The translations under genes and the position numbers were made by a program. A stretch of 64,000 nucleotides of DNA from Escherichia phage RB14: sequence record NC_012638.1; one strand, given 5' to 3'. The notes under the pieces are model-generated. The model did not search any database. It saw only the letters and a program-made list of their open reading frames with translations, and had not been told where the DNA came from. Shown here piece after piece: positions 2,087-31,892 of this stretch; position 1 is the first letter of the stretch, and every line of letters begins with the position of its first letter.

Positions 2087-3289
2087 TTATTTTGTAATAA
2101 TATCAAACTGTTCTTTAAAGCAGAAGCTTGAATCTTGATGCTGATACAAAAATTCATATGCTTTTTCTCGCTCACGGTCATAAAGAGCTCGGTCAGATGA
2201 CAGTTCTTTAATACGTTCAAACGTTGATTCCATATCATTTTCATCAAACCAAATGATACCGCTATCATGCGAGGTCAAAGGAGTATTATCAACACGGAAT
2301 TTTAAATTTTCGCCAGTAGATTTCCAAAATACCGGAATTGTTCCACATGCACCAAGCTCGAGATGAGTATATTCTAAAGAGCGTTGTAGATATTTTTTAT
2401 CCAACTTACTCAACTGATAACCAAAACCGGATTTACTCATACGTTCAAGCATTTCGCTATTTACATAACGGTCAAGAATTTGCGTTGGCAAATTAGGAGC
2501 AATTTTAATTTGGTCTACTTGATGAAGACGATAATACTCGTATGGAATTCCTTTTTCTTTAATGGGAATGAACGCTGGAGAACGTTCCAGACCTTCCATA
2601 ATAGTACTTAGTCCTGCAGGTTTAAGATGTTTTTCATGAAAATCAAACATCTGATAAAAACCTTTCCACGTAGTCGTACGACCAATCCAACGGTTAATAT
2701 TCATGTTAATTTCAGAAACATCTTTCCAGTAGGTTGACCGAACCTTCGCAATATCCATAGGAGGCTGAAAGTTATATACGGTCGGTGCTTCTTCAATATC
2801 ATCAAACAGAGAAACTGTTTCAGGATACCATTCTTTCATCAGAACTTTATTAAAATCGCCATTATCAGAATGACTAAAAATAACATCAGCTCGACGAACA
2901 GTTTCTTCTAATCCCAAATTTCGACGCAAAGAAAGAGAAGAATGGTCATGTTGATAAACTACAACACGAACCGAAGGTTTAATGTTATCAATAATTTTTT
3001 TATAGTTATTAATAGTGTCTTCTTCAACTGAAGTAGCAGGAACTGAATTGATAATTAGAATATCACAATCATTTACCAGCTTAAGTGTTTTATCGTATTC
3101 TTTTGCCAATAAAACCGGAATTGAAAATGATTTATAATCATGTGCACAGTTACGAGTAAATGATTTATCTTTAGCATAAACCAAAGTTACTTCATGACCA
3201 TTTTTAATAAACCAATCACGTTGCTCGAGTGAGAATTTTGTCACACCACAACCTTCAAGACCTCGAGCCATAAAAATACATACTTTCAT
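2087..3289 (-). CDS. a-gt: DNA alpha-glucosyltransferase
   Basis: 400 aa; long stretches match T4 AGT as remembered (FMARGLEGCGVTKFSLEQRDWFIKNGHEVTLVYAKDKSF...). Confidence 0.92.
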   Translation of the reverse strand: MKVCIFMARGLEGCGVTKFSLEQRDWFIKNGHEVTLVYAKDKSFTRNCAHDYKSFSIPVLLAKEYDKTLKLVNDCDILIINSVPATSVEEDTINNYKKIIDNIKPSVRVVVYQHDHSSLSLRRNLGLEETVRRADVIFSHSDNGDFNKVLMKEWYPETVSLFDDIEEAPTVYNFQPPMDIAKVRSTYWKDVSEINMNINRWIGRTTTWKGFYQMFDFHEKHLKPAGLSTIMEGLERSPAFIPIKEKGIPYEYYRLHQVDQIKIAPNLPTQILDRYVNSEMLERMSKSGFGYQLSKLDKKYLQRSLEYTHLELGACGTIPVFWKSTGENLKFRVDNTPLTSHDSGIIWFDENDMESTFERIKELSSDRALYDREREKAYEFLYQHQDSSFCFKEQFDIITK

Positions 3290-3342
3290 TTAATATCCTC
3301 TTTGTTTTGGTTTATTTTACCAAAAATTTATAAAGCAATATA

Positions 3343-3356
3343 GGAGCCGAAGCTCC
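3343..3356 (-). terminator. Hairpin GGAGC-UUCG-GCUCC
   Basis: Tetraloop stem followed by UAUAUUGCUUUAU on minus strand. Confidence 0.45.
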
Positions 3357-3529
3357 TATCCGCATAATACGCCATACAGAGGCTCATTAGAACTTTTAAA
3401 TTTTATGCGCTTATATGTTATAATTCCTTCTGCTTTAGCTTTATCATGAGACTCTTTAAAGCGTCTCATCATTTCCTCTTTAGAGGAACAAATTTTATTA
3501 TAATCTATTTCAGAAGTCTGGGTGTTCAT
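3356..3529 (-). CDS. small hypothetical protein (57 aa)
   Basis: Manually read ORF MNTQTSEIDYNKI...; followed by UUCG hairpin. Confidence 0.3.
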   Translation of the reverse strand: MNTQTSEIDYNKICSSKEEMMRRFKESHDKAKAEGIITYKRIKFKSSNEPLYGVLCG

Positions 3530-8101: not shown

Positions 8102-9915
8102 TGGTGTTTAACCCTATGCATGATTTCTTTATTTTTACCGAGATTAAATCCGCGTTCGTTCGGATTTCCCAAATAACCACATGTTCTTCTTATTGTATTC
8201 ATCTTTTTAGGATCAGTTTCTCCACAAATAGAACAAACAAATCCGTTTTCAGTAGGAGTCATTTCATGGGTACTTCCACATGTAAAACATTTATCTACTG
8301 GCATATTAACACCAAAATAATCTAAATGTTGTGCGGCATAATCCCATACAGCCTCAAGACCTTTTAAGTTATTTTTCATATCAGGAAGTTCAACATAAGA
8401 AATGTGACCACCTGTCGCAATGAAATGATATGGCGCTTCACGAGAAATCTTTTCAAACGGAGTAACATTTTCTTCTACTGAAACATGGAAACTGTTAGTG
8501 TACCAGCCTTTATCAGTAACATCCTTTACACTTCCATATTTTTCTGTATCAAGTTTACAGAAGCGATAGCAAAGGTTTTCAGCAGGAGTAGAATACAAAC
8601 TAAAAGCAAACCCAGTTCTTTCAGTCCACTGTTTAAGATGAGCATTCATTTTAGTTAAAATTTCTCGTCCAATATCACGACCGACAAGAATATTCAATTC
8701 GTGAATACCAATGTATCCTAAAGACACTGAACTTCTACCGTTTTTAAATAACTCAATTATGTCGTCATCAGGTTTAAGACGAACCCCGAATGCACCTTCT
8801 TGGTAAAGAATAGGAGCAACAGTCGCTTTAACTCCTTTTAAGGAACTAATTCTGCACATCAAAGCTTCAAAACATAAATCCATTCGTTCATTGAACAATT
8901 CGATAAATTTCTGTTCATTGAACTGTGTTCCAATATAAGAATCTAATGCGATACGAGGAAGATTCAGTGTTACAACACCGAGATTATTACGTCCATCAAG
9001 AATTTCATTGCCAGTCGAATCTTTCCATACGCTCAAGAAACTACGACAACCCATTGGAGAAACAGGAATAGATGAGCCGGTGATAGCTTTATTGTTCTTA
9101 GCTGAAATAATATCAGGATACATCCTTTTGCTTGCGCACTCTAGAGCAAGCTGTTTAATATCATAGTTCGGATCGTCTTTATAAAGATTAACACCTTCTT
9201 CAACGAACATAACAAGCTTAGGGAAAATAGGAGTTATCCCATCACGACCAAGACCTTTAATACGATTTTTCAGAATTGCTTTCTGAATCATTCGTTCAGT
9301 CCAGTCAGTTCCCGTACCAAATGTAATTGTTACAAAAGGCGTTTGTCCGTTTGAACTAAAGAGAGTATTTACTTCATATTCATAAGCTTGGAATGCATCG
9401 TATACATCTTTTTCTGTTTTAGATTGAGCATAATTCAACGCATCAGCGATTTGCCATTTTTCTGCATCCTCAATATGTTTTGCATAGGTGCGTTTAACAT
9501 AAGGAGAAAGTACTTTATCTACATTAGCAAAAGTCGTTCCGCCGTATTGATGGGAAGCAACCTGTGCAGTAATTTGTGCCATAATTGCAGTAGCAACACC
9601 GATTGATTTAGGAGTTTCAATCTGTGCATTACCAAGCTTAAATCCGTTCTCAAGCATTCCTTTTAAATCTACTAAACAACAATTAGTAAATGGAAGAGCA
9701 GGGGAATAATCAATATCATGGAAATGAATAATTCCGCTTTCATGCGCTTTCATAATAAAAGACGGGACCATATTTTTGGCAATGTGTTTAGACACAATAC
9801 CAGCCATAAGGTCCCGTTGAGTTGGAAAAACACGAGAATCTTTATTAGCATTCTCGTTTAAAAGGTCTTTATTAGTTTTATGAATCAATCCTTCAATTTC
9901 TTTTTCAATTGTCAT
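8098..9915 (-). CDS. nrdD: Anaerobic ribonucleoside-triphosphate reductase
   Basis: 605 aa, uninterrupted; C-terminal glycyl-radical motif RRTCGYLG; Cys cluster CFTCGS...CSIC. Confidence 0.95.
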   Translation of the reverse strand: MTIEKEIEGLIHKTNKDLLNENANKDSRVFPTQRDLMAGIVSKHIAKNMVPSFIMKAHESGIIHFHDIDYSPALPFTNCCLVDLKGMLENGFKLGNAQIETPKSIGVATAIMAQITAQVASHQYGGTTFANVDKVLSPYVKRTYAKHIEDAEKWQIADALNYAQSKTEKDVYDAFQAYEYEVNTLFSSNGQTPFVTITFGTGTDWTERMIQKAILKNRIKGLGRDGITPIFPKLVMFVEEGVNLYKDDPNYDIKQLALECASKRMYPDIISAKNNKAITGSSIPVSPMGCRSFLSVWKDSTGNEILDGRNNLGVVTLNLPRIALDSYIGTQFNEQKFIELFNERMDLCFEALMCRISSLKGVKATVAPILYQEGAFGVRLKPDDDIIELFKNGRSSVSLGYIGIHELNILVGRDIGREILTKMNAHLKQWTERTGFAFSLYSTPAENLCYRFCKLDTEKYGSVKDVTDKGWYTNSFHVSVEENVTPFEKISREAPYHFIATGGHISYVELPDMKNNLKGLEAVWDYAAQHLDYFGVNMPVDKCFTCGSTHEMTPTENGFVCSICGETDPKKMNTIRRTCGYLGNPNERGFNLGKNKEIMHRVKHQ

Positions 9916-10385
9916 TTTAAACTCTTTCTAAGCTGCTTCTTAAATGAAGCTATTAATTGTGTTTTAGTGTCAGATTCATTATATTCAAATCCTCTTCGAA
10001 GCATCTCAGCCACCATTTCCTCTTTTCCTAAACGAGAAAATTCCTTTGATTTATCTCCAACAAAGTTAGGGTGAATATTATTTTGGGTGTAATCGGATTT
10101 TAAATAAGTAAGTAAATTTTCTAACCATTCAAGATAATCAACACCTTGTCCCTTTAAGCCAGAACGATTAAATTTATGCTTCATTTGACCTTCTGCGGCA
10201 TTGCATAGATTACAAAGCAATCCACGTACCTTTCCTGCTTTTGGTCCATTTAATTCATGGTCATGATCGAGGTGATTAGCTTGAACATCAGGATTTAGTT
10301 CTCGTTGGCAAATTAAGCATTTACCGTTTTGTGCATCATAAAATTTCTGTTTTTCTTCTTTATATAATTTGCCAGTCAATAACAT
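9912..10385 (-). CDS. 49: Endonuclease VII (Holliday junction resolvase)
   Basis: 157 aa; matches T4 gp49 as remembered (MLLTGKLYKEEKQKFYDAQNGKCLICQREL...HLDHDHEL). Confidence 0.92.
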   Translation of the reverse strand: MLLTGKLYKEEKQKFYDAQNGKCLICQRELNPDVQANHLDHDHELNGPKAGKVRGLLCNLCNAAEGQMKHKFNRSGLKGQGVDYLEWLENLLTYLKSDYTQNNIHPNFVGDKSKEFSRLGKEEMVAEMLRRGFEYNESDTKTQLIASFKKQLRKSLK

Positions 10386-10426
10386 AATAAACCCTTACCT
10401 TAAATAGATAAGGGTATTTATTATTT

Positions 10427-28202: not shown

Positions 28203-28481
28203 TTATTCTTTAAATCTAATCAATTTATTCATAGACTTTGAAACTTCTGCACGAACCTCATGTAAGTTTTTAAGCTGTTCAAGACGCTGCTCATAGTAAG
28301 CAATTTCATCTTCTTCGAGACAGTCCTGTGAATCTTCTTTAAGATAACGTGCATAGTCCTGAAAAGCTTTACGGACTACTTCCTGGAAGTCATCAAGACT
28401 TTGAATTTTCTTAGGAGCGGCAGATACACGACGAGGTGCAGTATAATACTCATAACCAAACCCTGCACTTAATTGAGCCAT
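28203..28481 (-). CDS. hypothetical protein (vs.x region)
   Basis: 92 aa from ATG at 28481; track start 28523 is upstream. Confidence 0.45.
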
Positions 28482-28783
28482 TAGTATTTTTCCTCTGGTT
28501 GGAACACTGCACGACAAGCCCACATACTGGCTTCTTTGAGTTTCGTTTTAGCAATAGTTAACTGATCGAGGCTTTCAGCATAATTCTTCGCGAGTTCATC
28601 ATCTTCACAGCTATCGAATGCTTCCCAGAATTCATCGTATAAAGCATCAAAGATAAGTCCTAAACGAACTTCAGCGTCTTTGATAGCATTCACTTTACCG
28701 ATTTTCTCTTCAGTATGCGGCTTATAACCTTTAATGTCTTCAATCATATTTGACTTCCTCACCAGTACATAAATCATATTCAA
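28481..28783 (-). CDS. hypothetical small helical protein (vs.x region; possible Acb2/Vs.4 position)
   Basis: 100 aa in track; 88 aa if started at 28747. Confidence 0.4.
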
Positions 28784-28961
28784 CTAAACGAATAGGTTCA
28801 TGAATGCCATATCCTTGAACAGAAATTTCTGTCGTAGGATAAATTCCATCAATATCACCCATATTCCAGGCTTCATTAAATTGCTGTTCGCCTGAATTAC
28901 TAAACCACTCGGCGAAAGCATTTAGCACATCTTTAGAACCTTCAATAATTATCTTTGCCAT
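28740..28961 (-). CDS. hypothetical protein (vs.x region)
   Basis: ORF track 73 aa. Confidence 0.45.
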   Translation of the reverse strand: MAKIIIEGSKDVLNAFAEWFSNSGEQQFNEAWNMGDIDGIYPTTEISVQGYGIHEPIRLVEYDLCTGEEVKYD

Positions 28962-29323
28962 TACAAACTCTCAGTAAAGGTACGAGCGATAACGTCGCGC
29001 TGCTGTTCCGGAGTCAGAGAGTTAAAGCGAACTGCATAACCGGATACACGGATGGTCAGCTGCGGATATTTTTCCGGATGCTTAACTGCATCTTCCAGAG
29101 TTTCACGACGCAGAACGTTAACGTTCAGGTGTTGACCACCTTCAATTTTAACTGTAGGTTGTTGCTCAATTTCAATTTCACGGGCATGCAAACCATAGAA
29201 AATTTCTGGGTCTACAAAAGAGTCCTCTTTAAAGGTTTTAGAGACAATAATTCGTGCTTGAATATCATCTTCAAAATAAATAGTACCTTTATGTGTGCCT
29301 TCAAGAATTTGATATGCTTTCAT
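28961..29323 (-). CDS. Autonomous glycyl-radical cofactor, GrcA/YfiD-like
   Basis: 120 aa; C-terminal [29 protein letters not shown] glycyl-radical motif; 3' half about 51 percent GC versus about 33 percent in 5' half. Confidence 0.85.
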
Positions 29324-29330
29324 ATAAACC

Positions 29331-29711
29331 TCAATTAGAAAATAAATTTATCCAAGATTGTTCTTTAATTAAAAATGGCTCAGAATCATATGCCATTAAA
29401 CTTTGGGTGATTAGTCCTTTAAAAGGTCCATCAATAAATTCCATGGTAAAATATGGAATTTTATTCATTAGCCGTGCATTAGGAGCAGTACACAAAACTC
29501 TGCATCCTTTGAATACGCCTTTTTGTAATTTGTATTGCTTGGGATAAAATTCGCTTAAAATGTTGTTATTTGCCAAAATTTCAAAATGATTTACCAATTT
29601 ATTTTTAATAGTTTTTGGCGAAAAATAGAGATATTCGAAAAGCTGCGTGTCTGTCATCATTGCATTCCGATTACGAAAAACTGCGGACGAGTAATACCAC
29701 CAATGCAACAT
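29331..29711 (-). CDS. hypothetical protein
   Basis: ORF track 126 aa. Confidence 0.45.
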
Positions 29712-30244
29712 TTACTATTACAGCAGTAGTGTACAGTGTCAATATGGACGCTATAAATCTTATCCATATCAGGAGATTTGACAGGCTCATCAATTATATA
29801 CAAAATTCGCGAAAGCGATAAACCTCTGAACTTGCTTCCTTTATTACCAATAAAACTGCGCACAGAATCAGTAAATAAACGAAAACGTATATCATCATTA
29901 GAATAACGCGAAAATTCCTTTTTAATGTTATTTGCAGAAATTTTAGCGTAAGCTGAAGTATTAGAAAGAACAATAACTGTTCCGCCATCATACAGCCAAT
30001 TAGCGGCAAAGTTAGTCACAGCAATTGATTTACCGGATTGACGTCCACCATCTATACGAAGTGTGCAGTACTGTTTAAGTAATTCTTCAAATGGCGGGAT
30101 ATATTCGTTTTTACAAATTTCTTCTACTCTAGCATCAGAATGGTGTGTAAAAGCATTCATCAGGGATAGATAAGGACCAGTTAAAAATGTTCTCATTTTA
30201 TTCTCTCTAAATTTGGGCCATTCCATGGCGCATGAATTGTCCAT
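29657..30244 (-). CDS. P-loop NTPase (terminase-ATPase-like Walker A)
   Basis: 195 aa; Walker A GGRQSGKS, Walker B ILYIIDEP; C-terminal Cys cluster CCNSKCC. Confidence 0.55.
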   Translation of the reverse strand: MDNSCAMEWPKFRENKMRTFLTGPYLSLMNAFTHHSDARVEEICKNEYIPPFEELLKQYCTLRIDGGRQSGKSIAVTNFAANWLYDGGTVIVLSNTSAYAKISANNIKKEFSRYSNDDIRFRLFTDSVRSFIGNKGSKFRGLSLSRILYIIDEPVKSPDMDKIYSVHIDTVHYCCNSKCCIGGITRPQFFVIGMQ

Positions 30245-30337
30245 TTCTGTATTTACCCATTACCGCACTCAGGCTCGACCTTATTACAGGTTGGCGGGAA
30301 TCCCTCATAGAATCATGAGGTCCAGGTTGTTCCCATA

Positions 30338-30811
30338 TTATTTGAACGATTTAACGTACTGAATAGAACCTTTACTATTCACAAAGGCAATTTTACCATT
30401 TTTGTTATACATGGTAGCAGTACGTTGATAGCCATAAGTTTGTTTACCAGATTGATAACCAACTAATGCAAAATTATCTTCACCCATTTTATTCTGTTTA
30501 GCACGAATGCGTTCATGGCCATGTGCCATAAGAACCTTAGCATCACCTGTTGCAATGGATCGACGAGTTTTTTCATCTTCAACTGTATTAACAAAGTCGT
30601 CAAATGAATCAAATTTAGCATGAGATTTATTATACAGTTTTCCATCTACTGCATAATTATATCCTTGTACATCCATCTCAACTTCTGTACCATCATCCAA
30701 TACAGCAGTGATTTTCTGTCCTTTTTTAAATTTCAAAAGATCAGTAAAAGATTCAGCAATAATTTGAGAATTAATAGCTGCTTCAGTAATAAATTCTTGA
30801 TATGTTTTCAT
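30338..30811 (-). CDS. Internal protein with capsid-targeting sequence (ipII/ipIII locus)
   Basis: 157 aa; N-terminal MKTYQEFITEAA matches the T-even CTS; adjacent to e. Confidence 0.65.
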   Translation of the reverse strand: MKTYQEFITEAAINSQIIAESFTDLLKFKKGQKITAVLDDGTEVEMDVQGYNYAVDGKLYNKSHAKFDSFDDFVNTVEDEKTRRSIATGDAKVLMAHGHERIRAKQNKMGEDNFALVGYQSGKQTYGYQRTATMYNKNGKIAFVNSKGSIQYVKSFK

Positions 30812-30871
30812 GTGTATCCTTTAAATGTAAATATTTTAATTAATAATTTATCTCTTCAAATAACTGTGAAT

Positions 30872-30901
30872 ATACTATCACAATTCTAGGAGAAAGTAAA
30901 T
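30872..30901 (-). promoter_or_regulatory. Early-type promoter
   Basis: Minus strand TTTACT-N17-TAGTAT upstream of IP gene 30338..30811. Confidence 0.45.
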
Positions 30902-30905
30902 AACT

Positions 30906-31436
<531 letters not shown>

Positions 31437-31892
31437 TTAAAAGAGGCTGTTCATTATTCGGTAAAGTGAAGGACCCATCACATATTGCCACTGAGTACGA
31501 GGAATAAGAGCAAAAGCATCCATCTCTGGAATCATAACGCCATCTTTATTTTCAAAATAAGACTCGCAGCGGCAATTTCTAAACATCTCATGCTCTACTG
31601 GAATCGTATAGTAAAATAGCTGTAAGTCTTTATTACTAGAATATTTAAATACACCTAGGTCTTCTAGAAGGTCTGGATTATAATTGCTAAAGCCAGTCTC
31701 TTCTAAACATTCTCTTCGTGCTGCATCTAGCGCGCTTAAATCAGAATTTTCTACACGGCCCTTTGGAATATCCCAGCGATGGGCCATCATTCCAGGCTTA
31801 CGAGAACCGGTAACACGACCCATAAATAAATCTTTATCTTCTGTCATAAAGATAATACCAGCTGATAATGTTTTCATTTTAATTTCCTGCAT
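31437..31892 (-). CDS. nudE: Nudix hydrolase
   Basis: 151 aa; Nudix box GRVENSD-x7-RRECLEETGF. Confidence 0.8.
   Translation of the reverse strand: MQEIKMKTLSAGIIFMTEDKDLFMGRVTGSRKPGMMAHRWDIPKGRVENSDLSALDAARRECLEETGFSNYNPDLLEDLGVFKYSSNKDLQLFYYTIPVEHEMFRNCRCESYFENKDGVMIPEMDAFALIPRTQWQYVMGPSLYRIMNSLF

Follow-up and report, generated by a model that had tools for sequence, protein, structure and literature searches.

What occupies the place of denV, the pyrimidine-dimer glycosylase gene of bacteriophage T4, in the genome of Escherichia phage RB14? The question was raised by a stretch of 64,000 nucleotides (nt) from RB14 (sequence record NC_012638.1; the whole stretch is referred to below as the window, with positions counted from its first letter). 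Between positions 29,331 and 30,244, it contains two minus-strand open reading frames (ORFs), of 195 amino acids (aa; 29657-30244) and 126 aa (29331-29711), and nothing that resembles denV. According to the original prediction, the longer ORF is an orphan P-loop NTPase gene which, together with its partner, holds the position of denV. We consider it very probable that the interval is the standard vs.6-vs.7-vs.8 segment of T-even phages in its T2-type form, that denV has been deleted, and that the P-loop protein, Vs.8, is an accessory ATPase resembling the core of the large terminase subunit (TerL).

Identity of the two reading frames

When positions 28900-31450 and 18001-43000 of the window were compared with GenBank phages by megablast, Tequatrovirus genomes matched at 95-98% identity. 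The best identities were those of vB_EcoM_Maryam and vB_EcoM_112 (98%), followed by RB27, 303Ecol101PP, AR1, and T2 (ca. 97%); none of the matching records was identical to the window. 303Ecol101PP could be aligned over 61.2 kb of the window's 64 kb, with identities of 91-98%. Thus, the window comes from a T2-like T-even phage. Judged from its sequence, the flagged region is the T4 tk-vs-regB-vs.x-denV-ip-e early region, transcribed from the minus strand. The genes in question are the following:

29657..30196, minus strand: vs.8, 179 aa plus stop, predicted stand-alone P-loop (ASCE) ATPase with a TerL-like core; the 195-aa ORF is its in-frame over-extension to 30244
29331..29660, minus strand: vs.7, 109 aa plus stop, 99% identical to T4 Vs.7 (tblastn, 29334-29660; PHROG 2049, E 3e-54)
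28961..29323, minus strand: vs.6, GrcA-like glycyl-radical cofactor gene, downstream neighbour of vs.7 (PF01228, E 3e-18; 97.5% identity to T4 Vs.6)

In the T4 RefSeq record, the gene order is vs.6, vs.7 (109 aa), vs.8 (219 aa), denV, ipII, ipIII, and e. Since T4 carries vs.7 and vs.8 as well as an adjoining denV, the two ORFs of the window are not in the place of denV, contrary to what had been proposed.

T4 Vs.8 (NP_049732, 'uncharacterized 25.0 kDa protein in regB-denV intergenic region') is the orthologue of the P-loop protein and is likewise encoded between vs.7 and the ip/denV cassettes. In tblastn it matched window positions 29660-30244, with three substitutions over the 179-aa core; teqhad Vs.8 (179 aa) was 100% identical at 29660-30196, and PHROG 1488, matched at residues 3-179 with an E-value of 4e-79, placed the protein in the T4 Vs.8 family. 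Both ORFs exist at the coordinates originally given, but both had been over-extended. The start of vs.8 is the ATG at 30196, as M-K/R-x-(F)-L-T opens every homologue, and the real products are 179 and 109 aa long, the 126-aa ORF being too long by 17 codons. The T4 product is annotated as 219 aa, whereas in the window and most relatives it has 179 aa and an upstream ORF stops at a TAG, which closes this frame in the window, teqhad, and 303Ecol101PP. The T4 form is longer because a T4-specific TAG-to-TAT change and a 9-nt duplication fuse the 33-codon upstream ORF to vs.8.

The P-loop protein is no orphan, either. Homologues of Vs.8, labelled hypothetical in nearly all cases, were found in 1008 phage records of GenBank, and in a set of 1.84 billion proteins clustered at 50% identity the family accounts for no more than 41 clusters. 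The contigs that carry the 41 vs.8 loci found in IMG/VR are all compatible with T4-like genomes and mostly 144-178 kb long, and in every one of them vs.8 lies between the e-ip/denV cassettes and vs.7/vs.5-regB. The same position was seen in the annotated records of T4, vB_EcoM_112, teqhad, T2, and 303Ecol101PP. At unsaturated distances, the dN/dS of vs.8 versus its relatives was 0.09-0.12, and we conclude that Vs.8 is under purifying selection. It had been foreseen that the P-loop ORF might prove to be a known, conserved vs.x protein of defined function; a conserved vs.x protein it is, but not one with a defined function.

Some database labels at this locus deserve mention. In the Klebsiella phages Roth78 and Roth16 (PQ657822.1 and PQ657790.1), 'terminase large subunit' is among the features under the Vs.8 match; if this label belongs to the Vs.8 homologue, it would be an automated over-call reflecting TerL-like Walker motifs. 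In some other records, vs.7 or vs.8 bears the label 'endoribonuclease', carried over from neighbouring regB.

The variable region between e and vs.8

The lack of a denV-like ORF was borne out. DenV was defined by homology to pyrimidine-dimer glycosylase (Pyr_excise), about 138 aa in length. With six DenV queries (T4, teqhad, and four divergent ones), tblastn returned only chance matches in the window. A hidden Markov model (HMM) built from 79 DenV sequences and run with filters off on six-frame segments of the window scored 12 bits at best, compared with 219-225 bits for the positive controls T4 and teqhad. The 12-bit match, at 9915-10394, was rejected as chance, the ORF there being gp49 endonuclease VII. 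The complete genome of 303Ecol101PP, the closest relative, also had no DenV match with the six queries.

The stretch in which denV would be expected is composed of the following elements:

30906..31400, minus strand: e, T4 lysozyme gene, fixed upstream border of the cassette region (translation; e/endolysin annotation in all relatives)
30821..30846, minus strand: denV deletion scar in the ip4-e spacer (nucleotide alignment with teqhad)
30338..30811, minus strand: ip4, internal virion protein IV gene, in place of the T4 denV-ipII-ipIII block (PF24183, DUF7412, E 6e-96; PHROG 3155; Ip4/ipIV in AR1 and T2)
30197..30337, minus strand: vs.8 leader, 141 nt, fixed boundary on the vs.8 side of the variable ip/denV cassettes (more than 95% identity in T4, 303Ecol101PP, and teqhad)

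Comparison of these elements with annotated relatives shows that the e-to-vs.8 interval is a variable cassette region. Following vs.6-vs.7-vs.8, annotations list denV-ipII-ipIII in T4, ip4 in vB_EcoM_112, and ip4-denV in teqhad; the window has ip4 alone. Homology to T4 ends at the ip4 stop codon (30338, which corresponds to the T4 denV stop) and restarts at the MKTYQEFI leader (30780), this N-terminal, capsid-targeting leader being the only part of the ip4 product that matches T4 ipII and ipIII and, together with the family similarity, the mark by which it was recognised as a T-even internal protein. There are two sites at which denV would be expected: with the T4 layout, the vs.8/ip4 junction (ca. 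30338), and with the teqhad layout, the ip4-e spacer (30821-30846).

A trace of denV was found at the second of these sites. The teqhad order is vs.8-ip4-denV-e, and what is missing from the window, between ip4 and e, is precisely the denV ORF. In the alignment with teqhad, a gap of ca. 400 bp separates window positions 29601-30837 from 30847-31000. Nucleotides 30837-30821 (AAAATATTTACATTTAA), directly upstream of the ip4 ribosome-binding site, are the last 17 nt of a teqhad-type denV and code for its ..NIYI-stop end. The adjoining nucleotides 30846-30838 (TTATTAATT) may derive from denV codons 3-5, to which an 8-nt match (TATTAATT) was found, a possible second remnant. Apart from the 17-nt 3' remnant, the window has neither a coding sequence for T4 DenV (endonuclease V) nor any protein similarity to it. 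The scar junction is common to the window, vB_EcoM_112, and 303Ecol101PP, with six further nucleotides lost in T2 and in IMG/VR contig IMGVR_UViG_2938479101_000005. In another contig, IMGVR_UViG_2974742932_000001, only the C-terminal 42 residues of denV are left (positions 2800-2925; 74% identity to T4 DenV; 43 bits with the denV HMM), which, from the sequence, is an independent, partial deletion. From the scar, the shared junctions, and this fragment, we conclude that denV was lost by deletion from an ip4-denV-e arrangement, and that stages of the loss differ among phages. The ancestor was teqhad-like, and the deletion left the last 17 nt of the denV ORF just upstream of ip4.

The closest parallel is phage T2 (NC_054931.1), whose e-ipIV-vs.8 locus has the same vs.6-vs.7-vs.8-ip4-e order without denV at 97% identity, and the same deletion junction except for the six additional nucleotides. 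T2 is the classical naturally v-minus phage, and the likeness to it that the original prediction drew from the lack of denV holds, the vs.8-ip4-e layouts being identical. A literature search on T2 and denV found nothing relevant. The two phages differ in vs.8, which is intact in the window but a frameshifted pseudogene in T2: it carries two 2-nt deletions, near codons 32 and 115 (locus L128 of NC_054931.1, positions 958-1640), and is annotated only as a 110-aa fragment. In an independent T2 sequence from 2025 (PV958097.1), Vs.8 matches in three pieces. By its sequence, T2 is thus a natural vs.8 and denV double null.

Exchange of this kind has precedents. PMC12373910 cites Repoila et al. 1994 for cassette exchange at the ip loci of T-even phages, and states that Ip2 is missing from T2 and T6 and that injected Ip proteins inhibit GmrSD-type restriction. 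The window conforms to the polymorphic internal-protein loci of T-even phages, where ip cassettes with an MKTYQEFI leader are swapped between fixed borders; it is a further example, with denV among the cassettes lost, and holds nothing new in this respect. As its arrangement is already known from T2-type phages, it represents a known T-even polymorphism and not a gene replacement. Cassette shuffling is illustrated by contig IMGVR_UViG_2938479101_000005, a close relative, in which an additional small ip-type gene (MKTYQEFIAESAAGQRVEGG...; positions 3050-3385), preceded by the shortened denV scar, lies between e and ip4.

The 141-nt vs.8 leader begins directly past the upstream stop codon and is kept irrespective of the cassette before it, which is denV in T4 and ip4 in the window. 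It carries the 33-codon upstream ORF and a hairpin, CCTCAT-N6-ATGAGG; the idea of a structured RNA gained no support, the folding z-score being 0.25 and Rfam giving no match. The leader may be a junction at which the cassette region recombines or is regulated. A sequence resembling T4 early promoters, ATTTAC-N17-TAGTAT with a TG upstream of it, lies downstream of e on the minus strand of 30860-30900 and is kept in denV-plus and denV-minus phages. It is predicted to drive ip4 directly here and would drive denV in teqhad-type phages. A promoter and terminator scan counted no more sites than in shuffled sequence. Elsewhere in the vs region, a vs.4 homologue encoded three genes downstream of vs.8 (28481-28783, minus strand) matched Pfam Acb2_Tad1_hairpin (PF24729, E 1e-19); Acb2 is an anti-CBASS cyclic-nucleotide sponge.

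Vs.8 and its partner Vs.7

The motifs of Vs.8 were read from an alignment of 32 homologues extending down to 20% identity:

30026..30049, minus strand: Walker A / P-loop, G50-G-R-Q-S-G-K-S57, of the RQxGK[ST] form; aligned to residues 161-167 of the T4 terminase gp17 (hhalign, HMMER)
29822..29830, minus strand: F123-R124-G125, candidate arginine finger acting in trans, 12 residues ahead of the Walker B Asp; paired with the gp17 VRG that precedes MIYIDE (hhalign)
29783..29806, minus strand: Walker B, I131-LYIIDEP-138, with the putative catalytic Glu137; aligned to the gp17 Walker B
29705..29725, minus strand: Cys cluster, C158-C-N-S-K-C-C164, in the window and close T4 relatives only; absent from divergent members

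The two Walker sequences named in the original prediction, GGRQSGKS (nt 30049-30026) and ILYIIDEP (nt 29806-29783), are indeed present, and both are family features. In Walker A, G55 is invariant, as is A59, which follows the motif; conservation reaches 90% or more at G51, R52, Q53, and K56. T4 gp17 shares the RQxGK[ST] form (SRQLGKT). Walker B, invariant in the T4-like subgroup, keeps to the pattern hhhh[DE]E in the majority of the 32 sequences aligned. R113 and G125 of the FRG motif, which is the family consensus, are likewise at least 90% conserved, and a C-terminal P-LFFVIGMQ is conserved across the homologues. The Cys cluster, on which the original prediction had also remarked, exists as CCNSKCC but is not a family feature, and it sits in the least confidently modelled part of the protein (residues 161-170, mean pLDDT 55). 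A sub-threshold Pfam match to Conotoxin on this cluster (E 0.003) was dismissed as a low-complexity chance match, since the cluster is not conserved across the family.

The suggested resemblance to a terminase-type ATPase core was upheld by several comparisons. Vs.8 matched PHROG 2 (TerL) with an E-value of 6e-6, and Terminase_6N matched 16 of the 32 family members at E of 0.05 or less, all below threshold. When the Vs.8 family profile was compared with T4-type gp17 by hhalign, residues 158-262 of gp17 were aligned with a probability of 81% and an E-value of 1e-5; the 97 aligned columns include both Walker motifs, and GRQSGKS was paired with SRQLGKT, FRG with VRG, and LYIIDEP with MIYIDEC. Vs.8 has the motifs typical of TerL: a P-loop RQxGK[ST], an Arg ca. 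10 residues ahead of Walker B, and a Walker B DE. Ten other P-loop proteins encoded by this type of phage (Dda, UvsW, gp41, UvsX, gp44, gp46, gp1, Tk, PseT, and NrdC.x) served as controls and reached no more than 31%, and only over the P-loop. An AlphaFold model built from 32 diverse sequences (pLDDT 86), which replaced a run with 13 close homologues (pLDDT 53.5), predicted a RecA-like alpha/beta fold in which one further strand is inserted between those bearing the P-loop and Walker B, as in ASCE proteins. Neither Vs.8 nor Vs.7 matched NCBIfam, and a PDB sequence-profile search found nothing significant for Vs.8. A PADLOC match to HerA (E 0.017), obtained when Vs.8 and Vs.7 were searched, was discarded as chance.

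In comparison with large terminases (subdomain I of the T4 gp17 N-terminal part, Terminase_6N; P74-26 TerL; Sf6 gp2; phi29 gp16), Vs.8 has no lid, nuclease domain, or portal-binding region; it ends at residue 179, directly past the fifth beta-strand. Its gene lies in the early accessory region between ip4 and vs.7, whereas TerL is encoded in the packaging module by TerS and the portal protein, and the genuine TerL of 303Ecol101PP (610 aa) is encoded elsewhere. With no lid, no nuclease domain, no packaging context, and a score below the Pfam threshold, Vs.8 is not a terminase. We predict from sequence and model that it is a stand-alone ATPase, closest to the catalytic core of the large terminase. 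Uncharacterised proteins of 145-170 aa with folds similar to the Vs.8 model (TM 0.5-0.67) were found in BFVD. They belong to other T4-like and jumbo phages, namely Proteus phiP4-3, Aeromonas phiAS5, Acinetobacter 133, Ralstonia phiRSL1, and Pseudomonas 201phi2-1, PhiPA3, and EL; on the strength of the models, large phages may have a broader group of mini P-loop ATPases to which these proteins belong.

Vs.7 is linked to Vs.8 at the level of translation. The vs.7 ATG at 29660 overlaps the vs.8 stop as ATGA, making vs.7 a translationally coupled partner. T4 Vs.7 (NP_049731; PHROG 2049) shares this overlap and shows no difference of note. Of the 40 T4-like loci for which downstream sequence is available, 36 have a vs.7 homologue whose start coincides with the vs.8 stop or overlaps it; the other four have vs.5 there. 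The partner ORF is thus a real gene, and its tight coupling to vs.8 supports the idea of a partner put forward originally. Its product has the conserved core Y-x-F-x-DGPFKG ... EFI-x-GP-x-KG-L-x-T-x-SL-x-YD, with two GPFKG-like motifs, and no Pfam match or PDB relative. By eye, the GPFKG motifs resemble tandem KOW/SH3-type motifs and may be of that kind; no member matches Pfam KOW at E of 1 or less.

These features allow a working model. Vs.8 would be an active ASCE ATPase with a single domain, akin to the ATPase core at the N-terminus of the large terminase, and is predicted to bind and hydrolyse ATP through K56 and D136/E137, and the C-terminal beta-strand ending in GMQ would provide the sensor position. 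As Vs.8 lacks a second RecA domain and a lid, it would most likely hydrolyse ATP as a homo-oligomer. By analogy with terminase and phi29 ATPases, the candidate arginine finger R124 of the FRG motif, whose role we infer from sequence, would complete the active site in trans within the oligomer. Vs.7, presumably made in stoichiometric amounts through translational coupling, may act as an adaptor or substrate-binding partner, and the role of Vs.8 would be a non-essential, accessory one, early in infection. No evidence was found for a functional link between Vs.8 and denV.

Alternatives and implications

Two alternatives concern the fate of denV. The proposal that an orphan NTPase gene and its partner were acquired at the denV locus and replaced denV is in keeping with the absence of denV between vs.6 and e in the window and with the lack of a Pfam family for Vs.8, but we give it practically no credence: vs.7, vs.8, and denV stand side by side in T4 itself, Vs.8 and denV occur within 1.6 kb of each other, with denV upstream, in 34 of the 41 T4-like IMG/VR contigs, Vs.8 is spread over the 1008 phage records mentioned above, and the true deletion junction is 600 bp away, between ip4 and e. 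It could also be supposed that denV was relocated and that a copy resides in the ca. 100 kb of the genome outside the window, given that the window comprises 64 kb and that the denV slot within the e-vs.8 interval varies among phages. This, too, is highly improbable. In each of the 34 denV-bearing T4-like contigs the gene is inside the e-vs.8 interval, the seven contigs without denV by vs.8 have no denV match anywhere and are not among the 138 denV-encoding stretches found in IMG/VR, and 303Ecol101PP, the closest relative, yielded none over its complete genome.

Two others concern Vs.8. The main rival as to its protein class is a helicase-type RecA1 module: Vs.8 would be a lone RecA1 domain of the SF1/SF2-like type, stimulated by nucleic acid, its active site completed by Vs.7 or a host protein. 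We regard this as possible, though rather unlikely. The structure by itself fails to separate terminases from the RecA1 domains of SF2 helicases, but the profile comparison prefers TerL (81% versus 31% for Dda and 0.4% for UvsW), Vs.8 lacks helicase motifs Ia, Ib, and III-VI as well as the second of the two tandem RecA-like domains that, with motifs I-VI, define SF1/SF2 helicases, and Vs.7 (109 aa, with beta-rich motifs) has no similarity to RecA2. Avs proteins sense TerL, and Vs.8, with or without Vs.7, might be an anti-defence factor, for instance a terminase-ATPase mimic engaging TerL sensors such as Avs-type STAND NTPases. The TerL-like core of Vs.8, its dispensability in T2, and its location in an accessory region rich in counter-defence genes, near vs.4 (Acb2) and the injected Ip proteins, would fit such a role. 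The strictly conserved catalytic residues would be unexpected for a passive decoy, however, and no PADLOC or anti-defence family was matched, so that we hold this to be very unlikely.

Several observations weigh against our own interpretation. The similarity to TerL is under every curated threshold (12.7 bits versus a Pfam gathering score of 22; E ca. 0.02 for gp17 with a PDB HMM), and the structure by itself, as noted, does not tell terminases from SF2 RecA1 domains. With ca. 100 kb of the genome lying outside the window, the genome-wide absence of denV rests on relatives. No publication on Vs.8 was found in the library that was searched, and the two frameshifts in T2 vs.8 mean that the role of the gene is dispensable in the laboratory.

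The finding mainly corrects the annotation of the locus, and no new biology follows from the replacement claim. The scar pins the loss of denV to a deletion from an ip4-denV-e ancestor, as opposed to primary absence; the phage is expected from its sequence to be without pyrimidine-dimer glycosylase and to show T2-like sensitivity to UV. Vs.8, one of many T4 genes without a function, can now be described as a predicted TerL-like, single-domain ATPase kept by purifying selection and coupled to Vs.7, and T2, as a vs.8 and denV double null, would offer a useful genetic background. What interest remains attaches to Vs.8 and Vs.7, an ATPase module conserved in T4-like phages and still uncharacterised. 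An unlikely extension is that the two genes form a module in which a minimal, terminase-derived ATPase and a small co-translated partner with two GPFKG motifs carry out a new ATP-driven task early in infection. If so, this task might be, for example, to counter host terminase sensors or to remodel a nucleic-acid or protein target.

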